Positions 6,399 to 44,766 of a stretch of DNA of 64,000 bases are shown one piece after another. The stretch is from contig JAQUAK010000001.1 in the NCBI GenBank assembly GCA_028687275.1, positions 228,213 through 292,212 of the forward strand, written 5' to 3'. The position numbers and the translations under genes were made by a program. This stretch comes from Patescibacteria group bacterium (GTDB lineage: Bacteria; Patescibacteriota; Patescibacteriia; Patescibacteriales; UBA12465). Below the pieces are notes generated by a model, which had not been told where the DNA came from, did no database searches, and saw only the letters and a program-made list of their open reading frames with translations. Positions within the stretch are counted from its first letter, which is position 1. Each line of letters starts with the position of its first letter.

Positions 6399-7625
6399 AT
6401 GAAACAATCCCATTTATTTACCCGCACACTGAAGGAATTACCAAAAGACGAGACAAGCTATAATGCGCAAACACTTTTGCGCGCTGGTTTTATTGATAAG
6501 GTGGCGGCTGGTGTTTATTCTTTCCTACCTTTGGGTTGTTTAGTAATGGATAAGATTAGACAGATCATTAAAGAAGAAATGTTATCAGTTGGCGGTCAAG
6601 AAGTGAGCATGCCTGCTTTTGCGCCCAAAGAAAATTGGGAAGCGACTGGGCGTTGGGATGACTTGGATGTTTTATTTAAAATTTCTGCTTCTGATAAAAA
6701 AGAATATGCCTTAAATCCCACCCATGAAGAGGTGGTGACGCCGCTGGCTAAAAAGTTTATATATTCATATCGTGAATTGCCTTTTTCGGTCTTTCAAATA
6801 CAGACTAAGTTTCGTAACGAAAAAAGAGCTAAGGCCGGCTTATTGCGTGGTCGCGAATTTTTAATGAAAGATTTATATTCCTTTCATACTGATCAGGCAG
6901 ACTTAGATAGATATTATGAAGAAGTGAGTACGGCTTATGAGCGAATTTTTAATCGCGTTGGCCTTGGCGATAAAACTTATTTAACTTTTGCCTCAGGTGG
7001 AACTTTTGCTAAGTATTCACATGAATTTCAGACTCTAACTGAATCAGGCGAAGATTTAATCTATATTTGTGATAAGTGTCGTCTGGCGGTAAATAAAGAA
7101 ATTATTGCCGACCAATCAACTTGTCCTAAATGTGGCAGTAAAGATTTACGAGAAGAGAAGGCGGTGGAAGTTGGCAATATTTTTAAATTAGGTACTAAGT
7201 ATTCAGCTCCTTTTGATTTAAGTTATAGTACTCAGGAGGGGAAGAAGGAATTAGTGGTGATGGGCTGCTATGGTATGGGCTTAAGTCGTGTTATGGGAAC
7301 AGTGGTAGAGGCTTGTCATGATGATAAAGGAATTGTATGGCCAGAAAATATTGCCCCTTTTAAGGTTCATTTAGTTTCGTTAAAAGAGAATGAAGCGGCC
7401 GAGAAAATTTATCAAACCTTACAGGCGGCTGGTGTTGAAGTTTTATATGATGATCGTGATTTATCGGCTGGTGAAAAATTTGCTGATGCTGATTTAATTG
7501 GTTGCCCTTATCGCATATTAGTAAGTAAAAAAACCCTAGCTCTTGATAGCATAGAATTAAAGAAGAGAAACGAAGAAGAATCACAAATTGTAAAAATTAA
7601 AGATATATTATCTTATGTTCAATAA
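6399..7625 (+). CDS. proS: prolyl-tRNA synthetase, bacterial type, no INS editing domain
   Basis: Class II motif 2 FRNEKRAKAGLLRGREFLMKDLYSFH, motif 3 GCYGMGLSRV, C-terminal anticodon-binding domain; CDKC...CPKC mini zinc ribbon where INS normally sits. Confidence 0.9.
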   Translation: MKQSHLFTRTLKELPKDETSYNAQTLLRAGFIDKVAAGVYSFLPLGCLVMDKIRQIIKEEMLSVGGQEVSMPAFAPKENWEATGRWDDLDVLFKISASDKKEYALNPTHEEVVTPLAKKFIYSYRELPFSVFQIQTKFRNEKRAKAGLLRGREFLMKDLYSFHTDQADLDRYYEEVSTAYERIFNRVGLGDKTYLTFASGGTFAKYSHEFQTLTESGEDLIYICDKCRLAVNKEIIADQSTCPKCGSKDLREEKAVEVGNIFKLGTKYSAPFDLSYSTQEGKKELVVMGCYGMGLSRVMGTVVEACHDDKGIVWPENIAPFKVHLVSLKENEAAEKIYQTLQAAGVEVLYDDRDLSAGEKFADADLIGCPYRILVSKKTLALDSIELKKRNEEESQIVKIKDILSYVQ

Positions 7626-8661
7626 ACTTATAGGAAAATTTAGTCATGACCTCGGTATTGATCTTGGTACTAAAAATACCTTGGTGGTGATGAGCGATAA
7701 GGGTTTAGTCATTAATGAGCCCTCCGTGGTGGCTATTAATAAGCGCACCAATGAAATTCTAGAAGTTGGTTTGGCTGCTAAAAAGATGGTTGGTAAAACG
7801 CCGGCCCATATTGAGGCCATTAAACCTTTAGTTGATGGAGTAATTTCTGACTTTGAAGTAACAGAGAAGATGTTGAAGTATTTTCTAAATAAAGTACATC
7901 AAGAACACTTTGCTTTAATTCCTCGTCCGCGGGTTGTTATTGGTATTCCTCTTGATTTAACTGAAGTGGAGAAGAAAGCGGTGGGGGACGCTGCTCGTTC
8001 TGCTGGTGCTCGTAAAGTTTATTTAGTGGAGGAGGCGATGGCTTCGGCTGTTGGTGCTCATTTGCCAGTAACAGAGGCGACGGCAACGATGATAGTCGAT
8101 ATTGGTGGTGGGAGTACTGAAATTGCAGTTATTTCTTTAGGGGGCGTTGTGACTTGGAAGTCTTTGCGTTTAGCTGGCAATGAATTTGATAATAACATTA
8201 CCGAATACATTCGTGAAGAATTTAATATCTTGATTGGTGAGCAATTAGCCGAAGAAATCAAGATTAATATTGCCTCGGCTATTCCTGGGGAAGAAACGCA
8301 AGAGATGGAGGTAAGGGGTAGGGACTTGATTAATGGCCTTCCTAAGGCAATTATTGTTAACGATAAACAAATAAGAGAGGCTATTAGCCGAACGGTTATT
8401 AAAATTACGGATAATATTAAAACTATTTTGGAAACAACTCCGCCTGAGTTAGTGGCTGATATTTATGAGCGGGGAATTTATTTGTCTGGGGGTGGAGCTT
8501 TGCTGCGTGGATTAGACCAGGCTATTTCTTTGGCAGCCAAGATTCCGGTAAAAATTGTTGATGATCCACTAACTTGCGTCGTTCGTGGTACCGGTATTTT
8601 AATTAGTGATCCTGAATTACTAGGCAAAGTTACTTTAGGTAATATTACTTTTGATAAATAA
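7615..8661 (+). CDS. mreB: rod-shape actin homolog MreB (copy 1, next to mreCD)
   Basis: GIDLGTKNTLV, VDIGGGSTEIAVISLGG, YLSGGGALLRGLD actin-fold phosphate/adenosine motifs; overlaps proS end by 11 nt. Confidence 0.9.
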   Translation: MFNKLIGKFSHDLGIDLGTKNTLVVMSDKGLVINEPSVVAINKRTNEILEVGLAAKKMVGKTPAHIEAIKPLVDGVISDFEVTEKMLKYFLNKVHQEHFALIPRPRVVIGIPLDLTEVEKKAVGDAARSAGARKVYLVEEAMASAVGAHLPVTEATATMIVDIGGGSTEIAVISLGGVVTWKSLRLAGNEFDNNITEYIREEFNILIGEQLAEEIKINIASAIPGEETQEMEVRGRDLINGLPKAIIVNDKQIREAISRTVIKITDNIKTILETTPPELVADIYERGIYLSGGGALLRGLDQAISLAAKIPVKIVDDPLTCVVRGTGILISDPELLGKVTLGNITFDK

Positions 8662-13408: not shown

Positions 13409-14416
13409 ATGTTTATTAAACGTATCGGTATCGATTTGGGAACAGCTTATACTTTAGTATATCTGCCTCGTCGCGGTATTGTTATCAATGAGCCTTCGGT
13501 GGTGGCAATTTCCATTGATGATAATAAAATATTAGCAGTGGGTAATGAGGCCAAGGATATGCTTGGGCGTACACCCGATACAATCGTGGCCGCAAGACCG
13601 CTTAAAGATGGGGTTATTGCTGATTATCGTACGACTGAAGCAATGATTCGTTATTTTATTAATAAAACTTTGGGGGGTATTCGTTTATTCCGGCCAGAGG
13701 TTATGGTGGCGGTGCCGGCAGGTATTTCTTCGACAGAACGTCGCGCGGTGATTGAAGCTACTATCGCTGCTGGCGCTAAGGCAGCTTATATTATTAAAGA
13801 GCCGATTGCGGCTGCAATTGGCGCCGATATTCCAATTGGTTCAGCTACCGGGCACATGATTATTGATATTGGTGGTGGCACTGCTGAAATGGCTGTTATT
13901 TCTTTAGGCGGAATTGTAGCCTCTACTTCAGTTAGGGTTGGCGGTAATAAATTTGATGCTGCTATTGTTGAGCATATTCGTAAAAAGTATAATTTAGCTA
14001 TCGGTGAAAGGACGGCTGAAGAAATTAAGATTAATATTGGCTCAGCTTTGTATATTGAAGATAAATTGCACATGGAAATAAGGGGCCGCGATATTGTTAC
14101 GGGCTTACCTAGAAGTATTACAGTTTCTAGTGATGATGTTACCGAAGCTATCCAAAATGAGCTAGAAGCCATTATTGCCGCCGCTAAAAAAGTATTACAA
14201 AAAACCCCACCGGAATTAGCGGCTGATATCATGGATAAGGGGATTATTATGTCTGGGGGGAGTTCTTTGTTAAGAAATATTGATCAATTAGTGTCTCGCA
14301 CCACTGGCGTGCCAGCCTATGTGGCTGACGATGCTTTGCTTTGCGTTGCTAAGGGAACAGGAATTGCTTTAGAAAATCTTGATTCCTATAAACGCAGTAT
14401 TCTGGCTACTAAATAA
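13409..14416 (+). CDS. mreB: MreB/Mbl actin homolog (copy 2)
   Basis: GIDLGTAYTLVY, GVIADY, IIDIGGGTAEMAVISLGG, MSGGSSLLRNID; more canonical-looking than copy 1. Confidence 0.9.
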   Translation: MFIKRIGIDLGTAYTLVYLPRRGIVINEPSVVAISIDDNKILAVGNEAKDMLGRTPDTIVAARPLKDGVIADYRTTEAMIRYFINKTLGGIRLFRPEVMVAVPAGISSTERRAVIEATIAAGAKAAYIIKEPIAAAIGADIPIGSATGHMIIDIGGGTAEMAVISLGGIVASTSVRVGGNKFDAAIVEHIRKKYNLAIGERTAEEIKINIGSALYIEDKLHMEIRGRDIVTGLPRSITVSSDDVTEAIQNELEAIIAAAKKVLQKTPPELAADIMDKGIIMSGGSSLLRNIDQLVSRTTGVPAYVADDALLCVAKGTGIALENLDSYKRSILATK

Positions 14417-18823: not shown

Positions 18824-19873
18824 TTATTTACTAATATCTATTATTGCTTGCGTTAGGGCTTGACTATCGTTAGGAGTTATTAATTTTAAGTCTAAATAAT
18901 CTTTTAGTTCCGGTATGCCCCCAATGTCTGAAGCAATAGCGTGGAGGCCATGTTTGGCCGCTTCCCAGAGGCTGGTGGGAGAGTTTTCATAAACTAAGGA
19001 GGGTAGGATCATCACCTCTGCCCCTTGCAAAAATTTATCCATCTCTCCGTTGCTAAGATGTCCAACATAATCTAAATTATTAATCATTTTGCATTTGTTT
19101 TGTACAACATCAAGTAGTGAGCCTCCACCGGCAATGCTTAGATATGCCAGTTCTGGTTTTAAATCTGCTTTTTCCCAGGCATCAAGTAAAATATCAATAC
19201 CCTTATGCTTTTCTAGTTGGCCGGAAAAAATAAAATGAATTGGCTTGCTTATCTTTTTTGGTATTTGTTTGGTGATGTTAAAGTTGGGCCGAACTATCGT
19301 TTTTTGATTTTTAAAAAAACCATGTTGTAGGTGTAAATCTAGTAGCCATTGTGAAGGTGAAATAATTTGCTGAGCACTGCTTAGTTTTTTTTTGCTAAAA
19401 AATTGATAGAAATTAGCTAGTGGGGAAGTAATAATATTTTCTTTACCAAAATACATTAGACCAGATGGATGTAGTAACTGAATATCATGAAGTACGTGTC
19501 GATGAGGTATTTTTAAATCTTTAAGTAGTTTAGGTAGATAAAAACCTAGGCCAATTAAATTATGAGTTACTACTAAATCAACTTTTTGTGAACTTAATAT
19601 TTTTTTTAACTTCTGTTTGTGTAGAGGCAAGATTAACTGTCCGAGGTGCCAAAATAGTTTTTGCCCAATAGGCCAGTTACTTAGTTGGCTGTAGGCTGAA
19701 TTTAAAAAATATATATTTTCGGTGTCTGTTTGTTCGTCCTTGAAAGTAGTGGTGATAATAAAAATATCATGCCCGGCCTTTTTTAAATCGGTGGCCATTT
19801 TGGCGGCGATAATCTCCGCGCCACTATTGCGGCCGTAAGGAGGATATAAGTTATTGACGATACCAATGCGCAT
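18824..19873 (-). CDS. GT4-family glycosyltransferase
   Basis: MRIGIVNNLYPPYGRNSGAE N-terminus, C-terminal PSLVYENSPTSLWEAAKHGL GT-B motif. Confidence 0.8.
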   Translation of the reverse strand: MRIGIVNNLYPPYGRNSGAEIIAAKMATDLKKAGHDIFIITTTFKDEQTDTENIYFLNSAYSQLSNWPIGQKLFWHLGQLILPLHKQKLKKILSSQKVDLVVTHNLIGLGFYLPKLLKDLKIPHRHVLHDIQLLHPSGLMYFGKENIITSPLANFYQFFSKKKLSSAQQIISPSQWLLDLHLQHGFFKNQKTIVRPNFNITKQIPKKISKPIHFIFSGQLEKHKGIDILLDAWEKADLKPELAYLSIAGGGSLLDVVQNKCKMINNLDYVGHLSNGEMDKFLQGAEVMILPSLVYENSPTSLWEAAKHGLHAIASDIGGIPELKDYLDLKLITPNDSQALTQAIIDISK

Positions 19874-19879
19874 AAAATA

Positions 19880-21055
19880 TTAGTTAGTAGAGAATTCATC
19901 TAAAATTTGATCGGCTACTTTTTCCCAAGCATATTTTTCTTCAACTAGTTTGCGGGCAGCCCGAGACATTTCTAGTCTCTTGCCCTCATCGGAAATTAGG
20001 CTCAGTATTTTTTCATTTAAATCTTTAACCTTACCTGGCTCACAAATCAGTCCTTCTCGGCCATTAGTAAACACGCTGCGGACTCCAATCAGATTGCTGG
20101 CAATAACCGGCAAGCCACAAGCCATAGCTTCAATCAGCACAAGGCCAAAAGCTTCGTGGCTATTTATAGAAGGTAGGAGTAGAACATCAGCATTTTGATA
20201 CTGTCTAATTAACTCCTCCTCACTCACTCGGCCCAAAAAATTAACCTTTTTATTCAAATTAAATTTAGCTACTTGTTGTTGATATTGTTTTTTTAAATCT
20301 CCATCGCCGATGATATTTAAGCTGAAGGGCAGACTAATGGTGGAGATTGCTTCTATGAGTATATTTAGCCCTTTAAAATAATGAGCACTATCAAGACCAC
20401 CAACAAAGAGCAAGGTGTGTCCGCCACGTTTAATAAAGCGACGATTAACAAAATTAACGATATCGGTCGCTAGTCTTTGTTTAGCTTCTTTATCGGCCGT
20501 AATTTTTGGTTTAAAAACATCACTTTCTACGCCAAAGGGTATGATTTTAATTTTTTCGGGGAATTCTTGATAAATTTTAGAGAGCTTGCCATTTTCAGCA
20601 TAATCACGACTGCCAACAATAATTTTTTCCGCCCTTTTCATCAATTTTTTAAAGATGAGTCGGGAGGGTATAGACAGCATTTTTTTATTACCAGGCAGGG
20701 CAGGTGTATCCATGTGGTAATGGATGAATAAGCGTTTCTTTTTAAAAACAGAGCAAAATAATAAGATTAAGGCGTCGGTGCCAAAAAAAGGATAATGTAA
20801 ATAAATTATTTCACTAGGGAAAAGCTTAAGTAATAAAGAAAAAGGTAGAGCGCCATGGCCTGACCTTAAATTTGGACGCAGAAAGTGGACTCTCTGGTTA
20901 TAGCTGGTTTTAGGAGGAGTTTTTTCATTACTAGGAATCAGAGTAAAAGTGTTAACTTGATGTTCACGGCTTAATATTTCACCTAAACGATAAGCACTTT
21001 GGCCAATGCCTCCAGCGTAAGGAGGGAAGGCGCAGACGATTTGGGAAATTTTCAT
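19880..21055 (-). CDS. GT4-family glycosyltransferase
   Basis: FPPYAGGIGQSAYRL N-terminus, LLLPSINSHEAFGLVLIEAMACGLPVIAS E-x7-E region. Confidence 0.8.
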   Translation of the reverse strand: MKISQIVCAFPPYAGGIGQSAYRLGEILSREHQVNTFTLIPSNEKTPPKTSYNQRVHFLRPNLRSGHGALPFSLLLKLFPSEIIYLHYPFFGTDALILLFCSVFKKKRLFIHYHMDTPALPGNKKMLSIPSRLIFKKLMKRAEKIIVGSRDYAENGKLSKIYQEFPEKIKIIPFGVESDVFKPKITADKEAKQRLATDIVNFVNRRFIKRGGHTLLFVGGLDSAHYFKGLNILIEAISTISLPFSLNIIGDGDLKKQYQQQVAKFNLNKKVNFLGRVSEEELIRQYQNADVLLLPSINSHEAFGLVLIEAMACGLPVIASNLIGVRSVFTNGREGLICEPGKVKDLNEKILSLISDEGKRLEMSRAARKLVEEKYAWEKVADQILDEFSTN

Positions 21056-21072: not shown

Positions 21073-21390
21073 TTATTTTAAAGTAATTTCTCTAACTAGA
21101 TCGGTAAGATTTTTTTCCATTTTACTTAACTTAAGACGTAACTTAAAAACAAAGTAGAATAGACTCATCACTGCTAAATATAATAAAAAATTTATACCGG
21201 AACCAGAGAAGCCAAGGTTAACCAATAATTTGTCTAGGCTGCGTATAAATATTATTGCTAAGGCGCCCAGTAGCCAAAAACTTAGCCAGAGAATAAATTC
21301 ATTAGTGCCTATTTGCTGTCTTTTTTTCTGTTCAGCTAGTCGCCAGATAAAAATGGCGATGAAAACTAAAGCGATTACTTGTTGTAACAT
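21073..21390 (-). CDS. DUF2304-like small membrane protein
   Basis: Three to four TM helices plus C-terminal amphipathic helix; resembles DUF2304 proteins that accompany GT2 genes. Confidence 0.6.
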   Translation of the reverse strand: MLQQVIALVFIAIFIWRLAEQKKRQQIGTNEFILWLSFWLLGALAIIFIRSLDKLLVNLGFSGSGINFLLYLAVMSLFYFVFKLRLKLSKMEKNLTDLVREITLK

Positions 21391-21481: not shown

Positions 21482-22000
21482 ATGAAAAAGTTTTTTTCTG
21501 GCCAGACGAAAGGGCTCGTTTGGTTTATATTAATCTACGCCCTAGTAAGAATCTTCCTGTCTAACCCTGAAATTGCTATTCAGGGCAAAGAAACATTTGC
21601 AATAGCCTTAGGTAGCCTTGCTTTTCTTTGGCTTCTTTTTCCAAAAATCATGGGAGAAAATAGCTTGGCTCTAAGTTTAAGTTTTTTCTCTCTGTCTGGC
21701 TATTCTTTATTGACCTGGACAAAATTTGATTTTGGACTTTTTTCGTCTAGCTGGTTTAGTGACATCGGTTCCAATGACGACAAGGTTGCAGTATTAATTG
21801 CTTTTTTAATATTGGTAATGTCAATTATCATGGTTATTACTGACATCGTCATGGCTCTAAGGGAGACTAGCAAAAAGGGACAAGTTTGGTGGCCGGCACC
21901 AGTGTGGTTGCTGATTGTGACAGTGGTAATTGTTGCTTTCGACATCTTGCTACCAAAATTATTTACTATGTTTAGTACATCCAATTTTTTGGGACAATAA
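21482..22000 (+). CDS. hypothetical polytopic membrane protein
   Basis: 172-aa ORF with about 5 hydrophobic helices, own promoter and terminator; no recognisable family. Confidence 0.6.
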   Translation: MKKFFSGQTKGLVWFILIYALVRIFLSNPEIAIQGKETFAIALGSLAFLWLLFPKIMGENSLALSLSFFSLSGYSLLTWTKFDFGLFSSSWFSDIGSNDDKVAVLIAFLILVMSIIMVITDIVMALRETSKKGQVWWPAPVWLLIVTVVIVAFDILLPKLFTMFSTSNFLGQ

Positions 22001-22024
22001 TTACATACAAAATATGTGATTATG

Positions 22025-22051
22025 GAGGTGGGCTTTGGTTCACCTCTTTTT
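22025..22051 (+). terminator. intrinsic terminator
   Basis: GAGGTG-10 nt loop-CACCTC stem followed by TTTTT. Confidence 0.6.
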
Positions 22052-22709
22052 ATTTGCCAATTTGTGAAATAAATAAATCTTTTAGGATGCGGAAGCCACC
22101 AGAAAATTTTTGGCCATATTCATGATAGGTAACTGTGATTGGAACTTCTTTAATACGCCAATGACTATGGCTGAGCTTAATTAAGATTTCACTACAGTGC
22201 GCCATGCCGTTATTTTCAATACGAAAACTATTAGCCACTTCCTTGGTATAAGCACGGAAGCCGCTCTGAGGGTCACTAGTGTGGGCTCCCAGCAAATGAT
22301 TGATTAAACGACCTAAAGGGAGGATAATGTATTTTTTGCTGTATGGCAAGGCAGATTTTTTTTCTAAAAAACGAGAGCCAAAAACAATATCAGCTTCATT
22401 ATTTATAATTGGAGCAGTAATATCTTTAATTTCTTCGGCTGAGAATTGATCGTCGGCATCAAAATGAACTATAATATCAGCTCCCATTTTTAAAGCTTGA
22501 TCGGTACCGGTTTGCAGGGCTGCGCCTTGACCGCGGTTAATCGGGTGTCTTAAGGCAAGAGCACCAGCTTCTTGGGCTAGTCTATAAGTATCATCGGTCG
22601 AGTGGTCGTCCACGACAATAACTTGGTCAACTTTATTCTTAACCTTTTCTACCACCTGAACAATGTGCTTAGCTTCATTCCATGCTGGTATGACACAGAT
22701 TATTTTCAT
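22050..22709 (-). CDS. GT2-family glycosyltransferase (polyprenyl-phosphate sugar synthase-like)
   Basis: Start moved to MKIICVIPAWNE (ATG 22709); VVDDHSTDDT, DADDQ (DxD); ATGA overlap with the stop of the upstream gene. Confidence 0.85.
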   Translation of the reverse strand: MKIICVIPAWNEAKHIVQVVEKVKNKVDQVIVVDDHSTDDTYRLAQEAGALALRHPINRGQGAALQTGTDQALKMGADIIVHFDADDQFSAEEIKDITAPIINNEADIVFGSRFLEKKSALPYSKKYIILPLGRLINHLLGAHTSDPQSGFRAYTKEVANSFRIENNGMAHCSEILIKLSHSHWRIKEVPITVTYHEYGQKFSGGFRILKDLFISQIGK

Positions 22710-23815
22710 AGTTTTGTATCTGTTTGAGCCCAAGCAGCAATATCTTCGATATCAATCAGGCCAATAGCAGTTTTATCTAGGGCTTCTTTAATTAAGGGTT
22801 GATAGCCTTTTTGTAAGCGCCCATCACTTAAAAAGCTCATGATTTCAAAAATAGCTGTTTTTTGTTTAGTATTATTTTTTTGGCAATAGGCACAACCGCG
22901 TTGACGGTAGAATTTTTTAGGCCAATATTGTTTAGCAATTGGCCAAGCTTTAAGTATTATCTTTTTTATTTCACTGCCAGGATCAAATATTTGTGAGCAA
23001 CGGGAGCAGGGGCGTTTGAATAACTTCTGAGCACTAATAAAAATAATTTGTTGAGCAATGTCAGCTGAACTAATGCCAGATTTTTTCAGTAATTTTAAGG
23101 TAGCAGCTGCACTAATGGTGGGGAGTGTTAGAATAACTAGGCGTCCGGAGACAGAGGCCCGCCAAATAGCTTTAAGGTCATTAGCGTTTACATTAGCATC
23201 AATAGCAATTACCTCACTATCTAATGTCATTAATTTTTCTATAATTTGGCCTACCTTTTGTTTATTGCTAGTGCGGATTGTATTGATGTTGTCTATTTTG
23301 TGTAAAGGAAAATCTTCGATAGAATAAGCGCTGCGTTTGGTAGCGGCGTTTTTTAATAGAGAGTAGTAGCTACTACTAGCACCGTTTTCTTCATTAGCGC
23401 TAACAATAATAATGCCGCTTTTTCTATTTAAAGACTGACGGAAAATTGCTTGCTGATTCTTGTTTAAGCCTAATCCTGAAAAACGAAAAATTTTAGGATG
23501 CTCATTACTTAGGCTAATTAGTAGCTTTTCTCCAGTGCCAGCTGGTAGTAGGGAGGCGCGGCCTTTAATTATTTCGTTATCGTCAGCGATTTTAAAACGT
23601 TGGTTATTAAATAAATCATTTTCATTAGCCCCCACCAGCCTTCTAAATGTGGCCTTAATATTTAACTCGGTTTCGGGGTCGAGTTGCAAGTAATTAGCTT
23701 TACCGCCATGACCGCAAGTGCAAAGCAAATTATCATTTTTTTCTTCCAAGCTAAAATGATTGTGTCCATGGTCACTGGTGTAGCGACAAATTGTTTTGAT
23801 TATTTTTTCTGGCAT
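22706..23815 (-). CDS. PilB/GspE-like (T2SS/T4P ATPase family) protein with degenerate catalytic motifs
   Basis: Collinear by eye with GspE N2+CTD (GEKLLISL, SIEDFP, CSRC...CAYC tetracysteine) but Walker A is SANEENGAS, Walker B region AIDANVN, His box TLPTI. Confidence 0.75.
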   Translation of the reverse strand: MPEKIIKTICRYTSDHGHNHFSLEEKNDNLLCTCGHGGKANYLQLDPETELNIKATFRRLVGANENDLFNNQRFKIADDNEIIKGRASLLPAGTGEKLLISLSNEHPKIFRFSGLGLNKNQQAIFRQSLNRKSGIIIVSANEENGASSSYYSLLKNAATKRSAYSIEDFPLHKIDNINTIRTSNKQKVGQIIEKLMTLDSEVIAIDANVNANDLKAIWRASVSGRLVILTLPTISAAATLKLLKKSGISSADIAQQIIFISAQKLFKRPCSRCSQIFDPGSEIKKIILKAWPIAKQYWPKKFYRQRGCAYCQKNNTKQKTAIFEIMSFLSDGRLQKGYQPLIKEALDKTAIGLIDIEDIAAWAQTDTKL

Positions 23816-23838
23816 ATGTTTATTATATCATTATCTGC

Positions 23839-23867
23839 TTGATTTTTAAAATGCTTAATAATATGAT
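23839..23867 (+). promoter_or_regulatory. sigma70-like promoter TTGATT-17-TATGAT for the mraY block
   Basis: -35 23839-23844, 17-nt spacer, -10 23862-23867 in the divergent intergenic region. Confidence 0.45.
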
Positions 23868-23919: not shown

Positions 23920-24336
23920 ATGGGTTATTCATTTATTAATAGTCGCTGGTATGCGCTTAGAAGTCGCTTAGCTTTAGTGTTTAGTGCTTATTGGCGTTAT
24001 AAGCCTAATCGTTGGTATTTGTTAGTGGGATTGTTAATTCAAGCCCTAATTTGGTTTTTGGCTAACAATATTTTTAAGACCCTAGGTAATGACTTGCTAG
24101 TTTTCCACTACAATGTTGATTTTGGTATTGATGCGATTGCCCAGCCAAGAGCAATTTTTCAAATTCCATTATTTGCTTTAGCGGCTATGCTATTAAATGG
24201 CTTAATGCTTACCCTTTTTGTGAAACGGATTCATTTCCATTTTTTAGCTAATGCTTCTGGTATTGCCAGTATCTTAATTCAGTTATTAGCGGTGCTAGCT
24301 TTAATGTCTTTGTATTTAATAAATTTTCTTGCTTAA
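23920..24336 (+). CDS. hypothetical membrane protein
   Basis: 138-aa ORF, 4 predicted TM helices, 6 nt upstream of mraY. Confidence 0.55.
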   Translation: MGYSFINSRWYALRSRLALVFSAYWRYKPNRWYLLVGLLIQALIWFLANNIFKTLGNDLLVFHYNVDFGIDAIAQPRAIFQIPLFALAAMLLNGLMLTLFVKRIHFHFLANASGIASILIQLLAVLALMSLYLINFLA

Positions 24337-29677: not shown

Positions 29678-31471
29678 ATGTCTAAAAAAGTGAAAAATAA
29701 AGAGAATCAGGCTCCAAGTATAGCTTGGTCTGAATTTTGGCGAGAGCTATGGCTTTTATTAAAGCCTTTTCGTCGTTTAATGTTCTGGATTTTGCTGGTT
29801 ATTTTTGTGGCCGGTATTTTTGATTTGGCTAAGCCTTATATCCTGAAGTTAGTGATTGATAGTTTATATAATTTTCAATCACTTGATTTTCGTTTTTTAG
29901 CCTGGCTAATAGCTTTATATCTCGGCTCTGATCAATTACGTTCTTTAGTGCAATACTTTGGTGATCGCTCTATCTTATCTTTACTAGTAAAGCTAGAATA
30001 TCATTTGGGTTTACAGGCTCAGTCAAAGCTACTCGATTTAAGTTTAGCTTATCATGAACAAGAAAATACTGGTTCTAAGATTGTAAAAATTGAGCGCGGT
30101 ATTGATCGTATTTCTCAACTTATAAATAGCATTGGTTGGGAGGTAGCGCCGACTTTTATTCAGCTCTTGTTTACGATACCAGCTCTATTTTGGGCCGATT
30201 GGCGGATTGGTTTGTCATTTATGTTTTTTACACCGCTCTTTATTGCCACTACTTATTGGTCTAATCAGAAAATGTATCCGGTACGAAAAAAGATTTATAA
30301 GTCCTATGAAGTTGCCTCCGGCAAGATGACGCAGTCAATCTTAAACATTAATGCTGTTCAATCTTTTGTTCAGGAGGATAGGGAGTTGTCAGATTTTGAT
30401 GCCATTAAGGCTGAAGTACGGGATAATGAAGATAAGCAGTGGGGTTGGATGATGAAAGTCGGTTTAGGCAGGAATTTGATTGTTGATATTGGGCGGGCAA
30501 CTGTTTTATTTTTAGGTGCCTATTTAGTTTATCAAGGACAAATGAGTGTTGGTACTTTAATTTTTGCTTTTACTCTAAGTGAAAAAGCTTATGCCTCCAC
30601 CTATCGCCTATCTCGTTTTTATGATCGCATGGAAGAGGGTCGAGAAGGGGTGAGCCGTTTATTGCTTTTATTTAATGCTAAAAGTGAGGTTAGAAATGTA
30701 AAAAATGCATTAGTGCCAAAAAATATTAAAGGTTCGATTGAATTTAAAAAGGCTTCTTTTAAGTATAAAAACACTCGAGCGATTGCCTTAAAAGATGCTA
30801 GCTTTAAGATTAAGGCTGGCCAGACAGTGGCGCTGGTGGGTCCTTCTGGTGGTGGTAAAACTACTATTGCTCGTTTAATTTATCGTCACTATGATCCTAG
30901 CTCAGGTCAGGTTTTAGTGGATGGACATGATATTAGTCAGTTAGACCTATTTGCTTATCGTCGCTTTTTAGCGATTGTGCCACAAGAAGTGGAGATATTT
31001 GATTTGAGCGTTAGAGACAATATTGCTTATGCTAATCCAGGGGCCAGCCAGCAAGAAATTGAGGAGGCCGCTCATATTGCTAATGCGGAAGAGTTTATTA
31101 TTAAACTTGATCAAGGTTATAATACCTTAGTTGGTGAACGGGGATTAAAGTTATCTGGCGGACAACGTCAGCGCTTGGGTATCGCTCGAGCAATTTTGGC
31201 TAATCCAAAGATATTGATTTTTGATGAAGCGACCTCTAGCTTAGATAGTCAGAGTGAACGCTTAATTCAGTTGGCTTTAGATCGTTTGACGAAAAACAGG
31301 ACTGTTATTATCATTGCTCACCGCTTGAGTACAATTAAGAAGGCTGATGAAATCATTGTTTTAGAAAATGGGGCAGTGGTCGAACGGGGTAGTCATGACA
31401 CCTTATCTCATGTCAGTGGTGGCTTATATGCTAAACTATTACGCCTACAAGCAGTGGGAGAGATTGAGTAG
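29678..31471 (+). CDS. ABC exporter, fused TMD-NBD half transporter (MsbA/multidrug-like)
   Basis: Six N-terminal TM helices; Walker A GPSGGGKTT, signature LSGGQRQRLGIARA, Walker B ILIFDEATS. Confidence 0.9.
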   Translation: MSKKVKNKENQAPSIAWSEFWRELWLLLKPFRRLMFWILLVIFVAGIFDLAKPYILKLVIDSLYNFQSLDFRFLAWLIALYLGSDQLRSLVQYFGDRSILSLLVKLEYHLGLQAQSKLLDLSLAYHEQENTGSKIVKIERGIDRISQLINSIGWEVAPTFIQLLFTIPALFWADWRIGLSFMFFTPLFIATTYWSNQKMYPVRKKIYKSYEVASGKMTQSILNINAVQSFVQEDRELSDFDAIKAEVRDNEDKQWGWMMKVGLGRNLIVDIGRATVLFLGAYLVYQGQMSVGTLIFAFTLSEKAYASTYRLSRFYDRMEEGREGVSRLLLLFNAKSEVRNVKNALVPKNIKGSIEFKKASFKYKNTRAIALKDASFKIKAGQTVALVGPSGGGKTTIARLIYRHYDPSSGQVLVDGHDISQLDLFAYRRFLAIVPQEVEIFDLSVRDNIAYANPGASQQEIEEAAHIANAEEFIIKLDQGYNTLVGERGLKLSGGQRQRLGIARAILANPKILIFDEATSSLDSQSERLIQLALDRLTKNRTVIIIAHRLSTIKKADEIIVLENGAVVERGSHDTLSHVSGGLYAKLLRLQAVGEIE

Positions 31472-43518: not shown

Positions 43519-44766
43519 ATGAATAAGAAAGTTTTAATAACTTCAGTCATCATGTTTGGTTTAGTAATTTTTTTGTCCGGGTGCGTGATGAGGTCAACAG
43601 AATCTTTAAATGATATTGAAATCTCTGAAGGGGATTTAGATAATGTTGTTGAAGCAAATAATAAGTTCGCTTTTGATCTTTATTCAAAATATAAAACAGA
43701 AGAGGGGAATATATTTTTTTCTCCCTATAGTATATCAACAGCGCTAGCGATGACTTATGAGGGCGCCAGAGGACAAACGGCTGAGGAAATGCAATCGGTT
43801 TTTTATTTTCCAGAAGACGTGACTGCTAGAAGGTCGGGTTATGCTAATTTATATAACGAAATAAACCAAGATAATAAAATATATAAACTTAATACAGCTA
43901 ATGCTTTATGGGCAGAACAGGATTATAAATTTCTAGATGAATATATAAGTTCAATTGATGAATATTATGCGGGCAAGGTTACTAATCTTGATTTTAAAAA
44001 AAATCCAGAAAAATCTCGTGTAACCATTAATGATTGGGTTGAAGATAAGACTAATGACAAAATAAAAGATTTAATTCCTGCTGGCTCAATATCTGATATG
44101 ACTAGATTAGTTCTTACTAACGCTATCTATTTTAAAGGCGAATGGTTAAAGCAATTTAACGAGAACGAAACTAGGGATGATGATTTTAGAATTTCAAAAA
44201 ATAATAGTCTTAAGGTTAAAATGATGAAGAAAACTGGTGAAGAGGCAAACTTTGGTTATAGCGAAAATGACGAATTTCAGATGCTGGAAATGCCATATGT
44301 TGGTGAAAAATTATCGATGTTAGTTCTTCTGCCAAAAGATGATAAAATAGATTCTTTAGAAAATTCTATCACGGCGGAGAATTTGTTAGAGTGGAAAAAG
44401 GGTATTGAGATGCAAAGAGTTAATGTTTATTTACCAAAATTTAAATTTGAAACTAAGTATTTTATGCAAAAGACTTTGTCGGAGATGGGCATGCCTACCG
44501 CCTTTAGAGACGCTGATTTTTCTGGTATGACAGGTGTCCAGGATTTATTTATAGGTGATGTAATTCATCAAGCGTTTATTGATGTCGGTGAAGATGGAAC
44601 TGAAGCTGCTGCTGCTACCGCCGTGGTTATGAAAGTATCCTCAGTTGGTCCTGGTGGTCCAGTAATACCGACATTTAGAGCTGACCATCCCTTTATATTT
44701 ATAATTCAACAAAAGGATTCGGGTAATATTTTATTTATGGGAAGGGTGGCTAATCCAAATAAGTAA
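43519..44766 (+). CDS. serpin, predicted lipoprotein
   Basis: Lipobox FLSGC; FFSPYSISTALAMTYEGARG, inhibitory-type hinge GTEAAAATAVV, C-terminal DHPFIFII. Confidence 0.88.
   Translation: MNKKVLITSVIMFGLVIFLSGCVMRSTESLNDIEISEGDLDNVVEANNKFAFDLYSKYKTEEGNIFFSPYSISTALAMTYEGARGQTAEEMQSVFYFPEDVTARRSGYANLYNEINQDNKIYKLNTANALWAEQDYKFLDEYISSIDEYYAGKVTNLDFKKNPEKSRVTINDWVEDKTNDKIKDLIPAGSISDMTRLVLTNAIYFKGEWLKQFNENETRDDDFRISKNNSLKVKMMKKTGEEANFGYSENDEFQMLEMPYVGEKLSMLVLLPKDDKIDSLENSITAENLLEWKKGIEMQRVNVYLPKFKFETKYFMQKTLSEMGMPTAFRDADFSGMTGVQDLFIGDVIHQAFIDVGEDGTEAAAATAVVMKVSSVGPGGPVIPTFRADHPFIFIIQQKDSGNILFMGRVANPNK

Follow-up and report, generated by a model that had tools for sequence, protein, structure and literature searches.

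Within a 64,000-nucleotide stretch of the genome of a Patescibacteria group bacterium (assembly GCA_028687275.1, contig JAQUAK010000001.1, positions 228,213 to 292,212; the whole stretch is hereafter called the window), a minus-strand gene at 22706..23815 encodes a 369-amino-acid (aa) pseudo-ATPase candidate derived from PilB/GspE, the motor ATPases of type IV pili as well as of type II secretion. According to Pfam, hhalign and Foldseek, it consists of an N2 domain and a C-terminal ATPase-fold domain, and N1 is missing. The protein is, as judged from its sequence, a homologue of the PilB/GspE family that fails all of the tested features by which an active member is defined. The gene is nevertheless not decaying, and purifying selection on it is as strong as on the adjacent enzymes. 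With a probability of roughly 0.45, we infer that this is a retained pseudo-ATPase descended from PilB, which would act as a scaffold or regulator of the glycan pathway with which it is co-transcribed.

Pfam, hhalign and structure comparison all bear out the PilB/GspE homology that a first-pass annotation, made from the letters of the window, had proposed. The Pfam family T2SSE (PF00437) matches residues 69-330 with E=3e-24 and 85.8 bits, for a cut-off of 24.9. The top sequence match in the PDB is EpsE from V. cholerae (1p9r, E=1.2e-17), with Thermus PilF also at E~1e-17, and hhalign against an alignment of canonical short PilBs gives a probability of 100% and E=1.3e-41 over residues 5-360. 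An AlphaFold2 (AF2) model built from 20 orthologues, with a predicted local distance difference test value of 77 and a predicted template modelling (TM) score of 0.71, recovers PilF (5oiu), PilB (5tsh/5zfr) and EpsE (1p9w) in Foldseek at E~1e-26 with TM scores of up to 0.80, PilT and DotB being far weaker (~1e-14). The fold predicted in this way is that of N2 followed by a RecA-like C-terminal domain. The NCBIfam equivalogs PilB, GspE, TfpB and ComGA score 48-85 bits against cut-offs of 300-850; for the PilB and GspE models alone, the figures are 82-85 bits against 617-850.

At the N-terminus, Pfam gives no match to MshEN or T2SSE_N, and the hhalign alignment to canonical short PilBs places the protein start inside N2. 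Residues 1-68 correspond column for column to the first half of canonical N2, with GHNHFSLEE in place of ASDIHxEP, TCGHG in place of RxDG and NNQRFKI in place of PQDGRF. Of the Cys and His residues in this segment, C10, C32 and C34 alone reach a conservation of 90% or more, a level confined to the narrow clade defined below. The first-pass annotation had regarded the Cys/His-rich segment as a replacement of N1. This has to be corrected: the alignment identifies it as a diverged first half of N2, and N1 is absent.

Compared with PilB, GspE and PilF (5tsh, 1p9r, 5oiu), with which its N2 and C-terminal domains are collinear over residues 5-360, the window protein shares three landmarks (GEK motif, CxxC...CxxC tetracysteine and C-terminal helix) as well as the first of the two Arg fingers and the first Glu of the Asp box. 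By contrast, N1/MshEN is missing from it, replacements stand at the Lys of Walker A, the catalytic Glu, the second Arg finger, the second Glu of the Asp box and both His of the His box, and no pilus or secretion genes lie beside its gene. In PilT-like ATPases, Walker motifs A and B, the catalytic Glu, two Arg fingers, the Asp-box Glu, which has a role in Mg2+ coordination, and the His-box His are completely or highly conserved, and the tetracysteine is specific to the PilB/GspE clade (McCallum et al.). These conserved residues were mapped through alignments with canonical proteins, and they were followed through a narrow clade of 20 full-length orthologues (47-100% identity, 364-372 aa).

The Walker A remnant SANEENGASS (residues 139-148; 23372..23401, minus strand as for the following motifs) stands where canonical proteins have GPTGSGKT. 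Reading A140-N-E-E-N-G145-A146-S147, it does not fit the pattern GxxxxGK[ST]. The Lys is A146 in the window protein and is absent from all 20 orthologues (Ala in 17, Ser in two, Val in one), and G145 and S/T147 are retained in every one of them. Within this degenerate P-loop, E143, N144, G145 and S148 are invariant in the clade. The Asp-box remnant is YSIEDFPL (23303..23326), whose first Glu, E167, is kept in 20/20; the second Glu of EDPxE is L171 in the window protein and L, V, A, S or H throughout the clade, and it would be the Mg-coordinating one, going by alignment offsets. The Walker B region reads DSEVIAIDANV (23189..23221) against the canonical DPDVIMVGEIRD, G-E-I-R-D being replaced by D206-A207-N-V-N. 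Both the catalytic Glu and the Arg of IRD are absent from the 20 orthologues, and D199 and D206 are invariant, D206 being a new Asp at the Gly position of Walker B. In the His box, GRLVILTLPT (23117..23146) replaces GHLVLSTLHT; R225 and P232 occupy the two His positions, and neither position carries a His in any orthologue. As for the Arg fingers, the first (R86) is retained in 18/20, and the second is S, T or N at position 101 in all 20, so that the two-finger arrangement is broken. The four Cys of the tetracysteine zinc motif (C270, C273, C308 and C311, CSRC...CAYC; 22883..23008) are invariant in the clade, and the window protein also keeps the GEK motif (GEKLLISL) and the C-terminal helix. 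Such a protein would be expected to lack the capacity to bind or hydrolyse ATP. The landmarks and substituted motifs named in the first-pass annotation are all found in the translation, and its suggestion that the loss of the catalytic motifs is itself conserved was confirmed, with Walker A Lys, catalytic Glu and His-box His missing from 20/20 orthologues and a ratio of nonsynonymous to synonymous substitution rates (dN/dS) of 0.060.

This ratio is shared with neighbouring enzymes. In the single unsaturated pair of orthologous loci (L001-L011), dN/dS is 0.060 for the PilB-like gene, 0.059 for the GT2 gene that follows it, 0.064 for MurG and 0.008 for MraY; the synonymous rates of the other orthologue pairs are saturated, which makes dN/dS unusable there and leaves L001-L011 as the only informative pair. 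It is because GT2 and MurG, its neighbours, have the same value of 0.06 that the gene is regarded as not decaying. Within the clade, identity is 47-58% for the PilB-like protein and 50-56% for MurG. All 20 orthologues are full length, without frameshifts or truncations. Furthermore, the positions of the former ATP site are less variable than the remainder of the C-terminal half (entropy 0.91 versus 1.25, p~0.003), part of this conservation reflecting core strands. The combination expected of a pseudoenzyme is thus present: catalytic residues have been lost, selection is purifying, length is conserved and the replacement residues are invariant.

The stop codon of the PilB-like gene overlaps the start codon of a GT2 gene (22050..22709, minus strand; 219 aa; Pfam Glycos_transf_2, E=1.6e-24) in the sequence ATGA at 22706..22709. 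The best NCBIfam model for this glycosyltransferase is PpgS (NF058614), which covers it at full length with 162 bits, below the equivalog cut-off of 370. Further along the same strand lies a gene for a DUF2304 small membrane protein of 105 aa (21073..21390; PF10066, E=5.6e-16), of the GacJ/Rv3632 family. GacJ, a DUF2304 protein, forms a complex with GacI, whose Km for undecaprenyl phosphate it decreases and whose Vmax it increases, and Rv3632 stimulates PpgS (Rush et al.). Because PpgS is the best model and the DUF2304 protein belongs to the family of GacJ and Rv3632, the two gene products most likely form a polyprenyl-monophosphate sugar synthase pair, the GT2 being the candidate PpgS/GacI-type synthase. 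Two GT4 glycosyltransferase genes follow, again on the minus strand (19880..21055, 391 aa, and 18824..19873, 349 aa). No GT-C transferase and no Wzx or GtrA flippase was recognised in the annotation of open reading frames (ORFs) of the window.

In the window, GT2 and DUF2304 are 659 nucleotides (nt) apart. This gap holds a plus-strand ORF for a small membrane protein of 172 aa (21482..22000) and a G+C-rich hairpin (22024..22047) that has a stem of 10 bp and, on the plus strand, a run of T after it. The hairpin is terminator-like and sits between the 172-aa ORF and GT2, whose ends converge on it. The ORF encodes about 140 aa in relatives, is lineage-specific, poorly conserved and fast-evolving, and has promoter-like sites of its own. 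It is absent from five related loci (L025, L027, L029, L031 and L032), in which DUF2304 directly follows GT2.

The association between the PilB-like gene and GT2 extends well beyond the window. A scan of GTDB species yielded only 10 narrow-clade loci, which carry the labels Patescibacteria or Candidatus Falkowbacteria, and a profile search of 1.8 billion representatives revealed a wider family of proteins of about 335-390 aa. In this wider family, degeneration is partial. The Walker A Lys is kept in 14 of 22 representatives and an acidic residue at the catalytic position in nine; the second Arg finger, the second (LHT) His of the His box and the IRD Arg are found in 0/22 each, and the tetracysteine is missing from 6/22. 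A GT2 gene lies directly 3' of the PilB-like gene in 9/9 distant representatives, whose identity is about 25-43%, with DUF2304 next after it wherever the contig is long enough and the mraY block divergent upstream under the same proviso. An ATGA-type 4-nt overlap is also present in L001, L003, L007, L027 and L029. When metagenomes were scanned with the GT2 alignment alone, a PilB-family ORF was found immediately upstream of GT2 in 49 of the 57 loci having at least 1.2 kb of upstream sequence, 20 of these 49 showing the 4-nt overlap. In the other eight, no PilB-like gene was detected, six-frame hidden Markov model (HMM) searches included; five of these eight loci keep the layout murG<ftsW<mraY<138-aa gene / GT2>DUF2304. 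Across Falkowbacteria-type Patescibacteria, the unit reads PilB-like>GT2>DUF2304(>GT4>GT4), with the PilB-like gene first and head to head with mraY-ftsW-murG-murC, and GT2 is the only neighbour that is constant across the whole PilB-like family. The gene for the 138-aa protein (about three transmembrane segments) is present before mraY in every related locus that is long enough, with or without a PilB-like gene. Neither this protein nor the 172-aa one, each considered as a possible GtrA-like flippase or platform protein, matches any Pfam or NCBIfam family, orthologues from distant loci included.

Since eight loci do without the gene, and since GacI/GacJ and PpgS/Rv3632 work without a PilB-like protein, the PilB-like protein is an accessory and not an obligate subunit or core part of the synthase. 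Short GT2 proteins followed by a DUF2304 small membrane protein are also the arrangement of the N-acetylhexosamine synthases GacI-GacJ of S. pyogenes and PpgS-Rv3632 of M. tuberculosis. These systems have no PilB-like gene, whereas in the one lineage of Patescibacteria considered here most members have a third, PilB-derived gene ahead of the pair.

A likely origin of the PilB-like gene emerges when its chromosomal slot is compared among relatives. In the loci L092 and L104, the same slot is occupied by a full-length canonical PilB (578 and 575 aa, respectively) with an MshEN N-domain, the intact motifs GPTGSGKTTT, GEIRD and HLVLSTLHT, and a T2SSE score of 443 bits. Immediately beyond its two GT4 genes, L092 has a pilM gene (E=1e-43) and ORFs resembling pilN and pilO whose scores stay below the threshold. 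When the HMM of the short family was run against 16 canonical proteins, L092 and L104 ranked second and third by a small margin (266 and 249 bits, versus 243 for the next), and these scores lend weak support to L092-type PilB as the nearest canonical relative of the short family. Positional homology is clear and is the main argument for descent of the short family from an L092-type PilB. Some relatives have an intact PilB of full length in the slot, most have a short, half-degenerate form and a few lack the gene, and the simplest reading is that of a single locus in four states, namely an active motor, half-degenerate forms without N1, the fully dead form of the window, and loss. The dead protein therefore looks like the in-place descendant of a real pilus motor gene and not like a fold newly recruited to glycan synthesis.

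What the first-pass annotation had said about the neighbourhood needs qualification in the light of these loci. The ATGA overlap is real, and the adjacency of PilB-like, GT2 and DUF2304 genes is conserved beyond this genome as it had anticipated (9/9 distant representatives, 49/57 metagenome loci). It was right that GT2, DUF2304 and two GT4 genes share the minus strand; they do not follow in unbroken succession, given the 172-aa plus-strand ORF and the hairpin within the 659-nt gap. Its remark that pilus genes are lacking nearby stands for the window: tblastn revealed no other T2SSE paralogue in the whole 64 kb, and no PilC, PilM or pilin match was found among the Pfam-annotated ORFs, which extend up to about 54.3 kb. 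It fails for the origin of the locus, with intact PilB in the slot in L092 and L104 and pilM in L092, although none of the other fetched loci has pilM. Overall, the dead PilB fold, its conserved motifs and the adjacency stand, and the replacement of N1 and the new recruitment of the fold have been abandoned.

Two observations from these relatives touch on pili in their own right. The locus L092:4247-12008 (Ga0265297_10002140) carries a canonical PilB, the series GT2-DUF2304-GT4-GT4 and then convergent pilM and pilN/pilO-like genes, and L104:1579-4082 is likewise a canonical PilB locus. A PpgS/GacI-type glycan module nested in a type IV pilus locus, as in L092, hints at glycosylation of pilins or of pilus-associated components. 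In addition, L029:2363-4186 (minus strand) encodes a 607-aa protein between murG and murC with a weak match to the pilin N_methyl family and with BNR-like matches.

Under the preferred reading, that of a retained pseudo-ATPase in a glycan pathway, the locus would have ceased to serve a pilus motor, and the protein would have been kept as a non-catalytic oligomeric scaffold or regulator. Its target would be the co-translated PpgS/GacI-type synthase with its GacJ-type partner, and the effect might be to tune or localise the supply of polyprenyl-phosphate-linked sugar for the decoration of surface glycans, beside the genes of cell-wall synthesis. The acidic EENG stretch of the former P-loop, together with R86, may fix the subunit interfaces in a nucleotide-independent state. 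A more specific version holds that the pilus motor has become an ATP-independent subunit of a complex of PpgS/GacI-type GT2 and GacJ-type DUF2304 protein, forming a membrane-proximal platform that couples the supply of surface-glycan precursors to the MraY/FtsW/MurG machinery, with the EENG loop mimicking bound nucleotide and locking the ring. In this detailed form, we regard the proposal as speculative and rather unlikely.

Several points weigh against a role in glycan synthesis. The link between the PilB-like protein and the GT2/DUF2304 pair comes from gene order, which is weak evidence in broadly collinear genomes, where the S8 peptidase, epimerase and ABC (ATP-binding cassette) genes are likewise syntenic. 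The GT2-DUF2304 pair occurs in eight related loci without a PilB-like gene, and in the window a hairpin and an opposite-strand gene separate GT2 from DUF2304. Moreover, the PilB-like gene is among the fastest-evolving of the cluster, with 28-43% identity across the wide family compared with 70-83% for MraY. Oligomeric state, zinc binding and the missing nucleotide binding are all deduced from sequence. Finally, in view of its pilus ancestry, a remaining function connected with pili would be just as natural.

It is because of this ancestry that the main rival to the glycan scaffold stays alive, namely that the protein still belongs to a type IV pilus system. It would then be a PilB paralogue without catalysis that regulates the actual motor, for instance by competition for the PilC platform or through mixed rings, and its place in a glycan operon would be the leftover of a pilus locus with genes for glycosylation of pilins or of the surface. 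The canonical PilB found in the slot in L092, with pilM and pilN/pilO-like genes flanking the GT4s, fits such a history, as does the weak N_methyl match of the 607-aa protein within the adjacent mur block of L029. The retained parts (first Arg finger, GEK motif, tetracysteine and C-terminal helix) would suit this role as well, and type IV pili are, according to the literature, widespread and functionally important in Patescibacteria. However, the N1/MshEN domain, N-terminal in canonical PilB, is gone, the window (in Pfam up to about 54.3 kb) and the fetched loci other than L092 hold no pilus gene, and the constant neighbour across the family is GT2 and not a pilus gene. On this balance, a pilus-regulatory function is doubtful, a minority view that still deserves to be taken seriously.

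Far less credit can be given to the idea that the gene is a dying relic without a function of its own, kept only because its reading frame contains what GT2 needs for expression, a promoter and signals for translational coupling. A graded series of losses, the absence of the gene from eight related loci, its place among the fastest-evolving genes of the cluster and the frequent 4-nt overlap with GT2 are all what one would predict for a relic. Translational coupling would, however, constrain the last few codons only, whereas dN/dS equals that of the neighbouring enzymes over a gene that is intact at 364-372 aa in 20/20 orthologues, with an invariant set of P-loop replacements (E143, N144, G145 and S148) and above-average conservation at the former active-site positions. 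We consider this explanation very improbable.

The weakest alternative, that the protein has remained an NTPase or takes another ligand by way of non-canonical residues, with D206 as a classical hhhhD Walker B Asp and S/T147 kept, can draw on the invariance of D199, D206, E167 and S/T147, on the conserved pocket and on the many wide-family members in which GK[ST] persists and the catalytic position is still D/E, but it is hardly credible for a P-loop without Lys or Arg, whose two adjacent glutamates would repel phosphates, in proteins of which 20/20 have lost Arg finger 2, both His and the Glu that binds Mg, residues that are completely or highly conserved across PilT-like ATPases (McCallum et al.).

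A possible functional analogy is found in Myxococcus xanthus, where PilB affects exopolysaccharide output independently of ATP hydrolysis, the nucleotide-free form being the proposed signalling state. The window protein would in effect be permanently nucleotide-free. The resemblance is one of function only, by analogy: PilB of M. xanthus is an active motor of full length, has an N-domain that binds cyclic di-GMP and acts through the Dif pathway, whereas the window protein appears to be a dedicated dead paralogue that has no N-domain and lies inside a glycan operon. Closer in architecture are canonical, N1-less PilB-like proteins of 335-406 aa such as P0078, P0080 and P0082, which share N2, the C-terminal domain and the tetracysteine; unlike in the window protein, GPTGSGKT, GEIRD and LHT are intact in them. 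Matches of about 1000 aa with two domains were discarded as relevant relatives, being canonical tandem PilBs with both halves intact. Such double PilBs (P0043, P0046 and P0051, with about 559 relatives) are widespread in Patescibacteria (Moranbacteria, Paceibacterota and Minisyncoccia), and the three named sequences, which were read, have two complete halves with intact motifs. In a search with P0043 for an intact PilB in the same genomes, none of the 120 matches listed could be assigned to a contig carrying the dead gene.

In the literature searched, no description of a dead PilB/GspE paralogue was found. The term "pseudo-ATPase" is absent from those of the papers listed that mention PilB, GspE or PilT, and a review from 2024 on PilB and its cofactors contains no "catalytically inactive" and applies "degenerate" to GGDEF domains only. 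Databases label such proteins "PilB", "TadA" or "T2SS/T4P ATPase", that is, as active ATPases; the pilus or secretion capacity that is deduced from these names in Patescibacteria genomes is therefore overstated. Besides this practical consequence, a single chromosomal position here presents a natural series of unusual completeness, from an intact motor through forms that keep Walker A only and fully dead forms to absence of the gene, and this series can show by which path a hexameric motor turns into a pseudoenzyme and which surfaces persist. If the link to a GacI/GacJ-type synthase is true, it would add a new accessory component to a pathway that serves cell-wall glycopolymer decoration in Gram-positive pathogens and mycobacteria.

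As to the immediate setting of the gene, a promoter-like site TTTAAA-17-(TG)TATAAT (23822..23850, minus strand) ends 6 nt 5' of the PilB-like ATG; its extended -10 element reads tgaTATAAT, and in both cases the assignment is a consensus match only. Because no Shine-Dalgarno sequence is visible ahead of the ATG and the promoter-like site ends so close to it, the transcript may be leaderless. The divergent gene for the 138-aa membrane protein (23920..24336, plus strand) precedes mraY-ftsW-murG-murC. In the ORF list, 4-nt-type overlaps are common in this compact genome, and further same-strand neighbours overlap too.

The window at large has a G+C content of 35-40%. By Pfam, it encodes MreBCD, sugar-nucleotide enzymes, MraY-FtsW-MurG-MurC, MurB and ribosomal proteins, and this combination of cell envelope and translation functions is typical of a small-genome Patescibacteria organism. 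Beyond the GT4 pair, Pfam identifies an epimerase and an S8 peptidase bearing FG-GAP repeats, as well as another GT4 and the second of two mreB genes. The two MreB paralogues (7615-8661 and 13409-14416, both on the plus strand) differ in their surroundings: one accompanies mreC/mreD, and the second lies on the margin of the glycan cluster, adjoining a GT4 and the FG-GAP-containing S8 peptidase, an arrangement that recurs in L027 and L032. An ABC exporter of the MsbA/PglK type (29678-31471, plus strand; its orthologues match ABC_membrane and ABC_tran) is a candidate flippase for lipid-linked sugars; in several relatives it lies in synteny with the mur and glycan block. Finally, a full-length serpin is encoded at 43519-44766 (plus strand; Pfam Serpin, E=6e-126) in this small bacterial genome, and the ribosomal proteins S11, S9 and L23 (36164-36784, 39122-39694 and 51938-52435, respectively, all on the plus strand) carry N-terminal extensions of about 70-95 residues before their Pfam domains.

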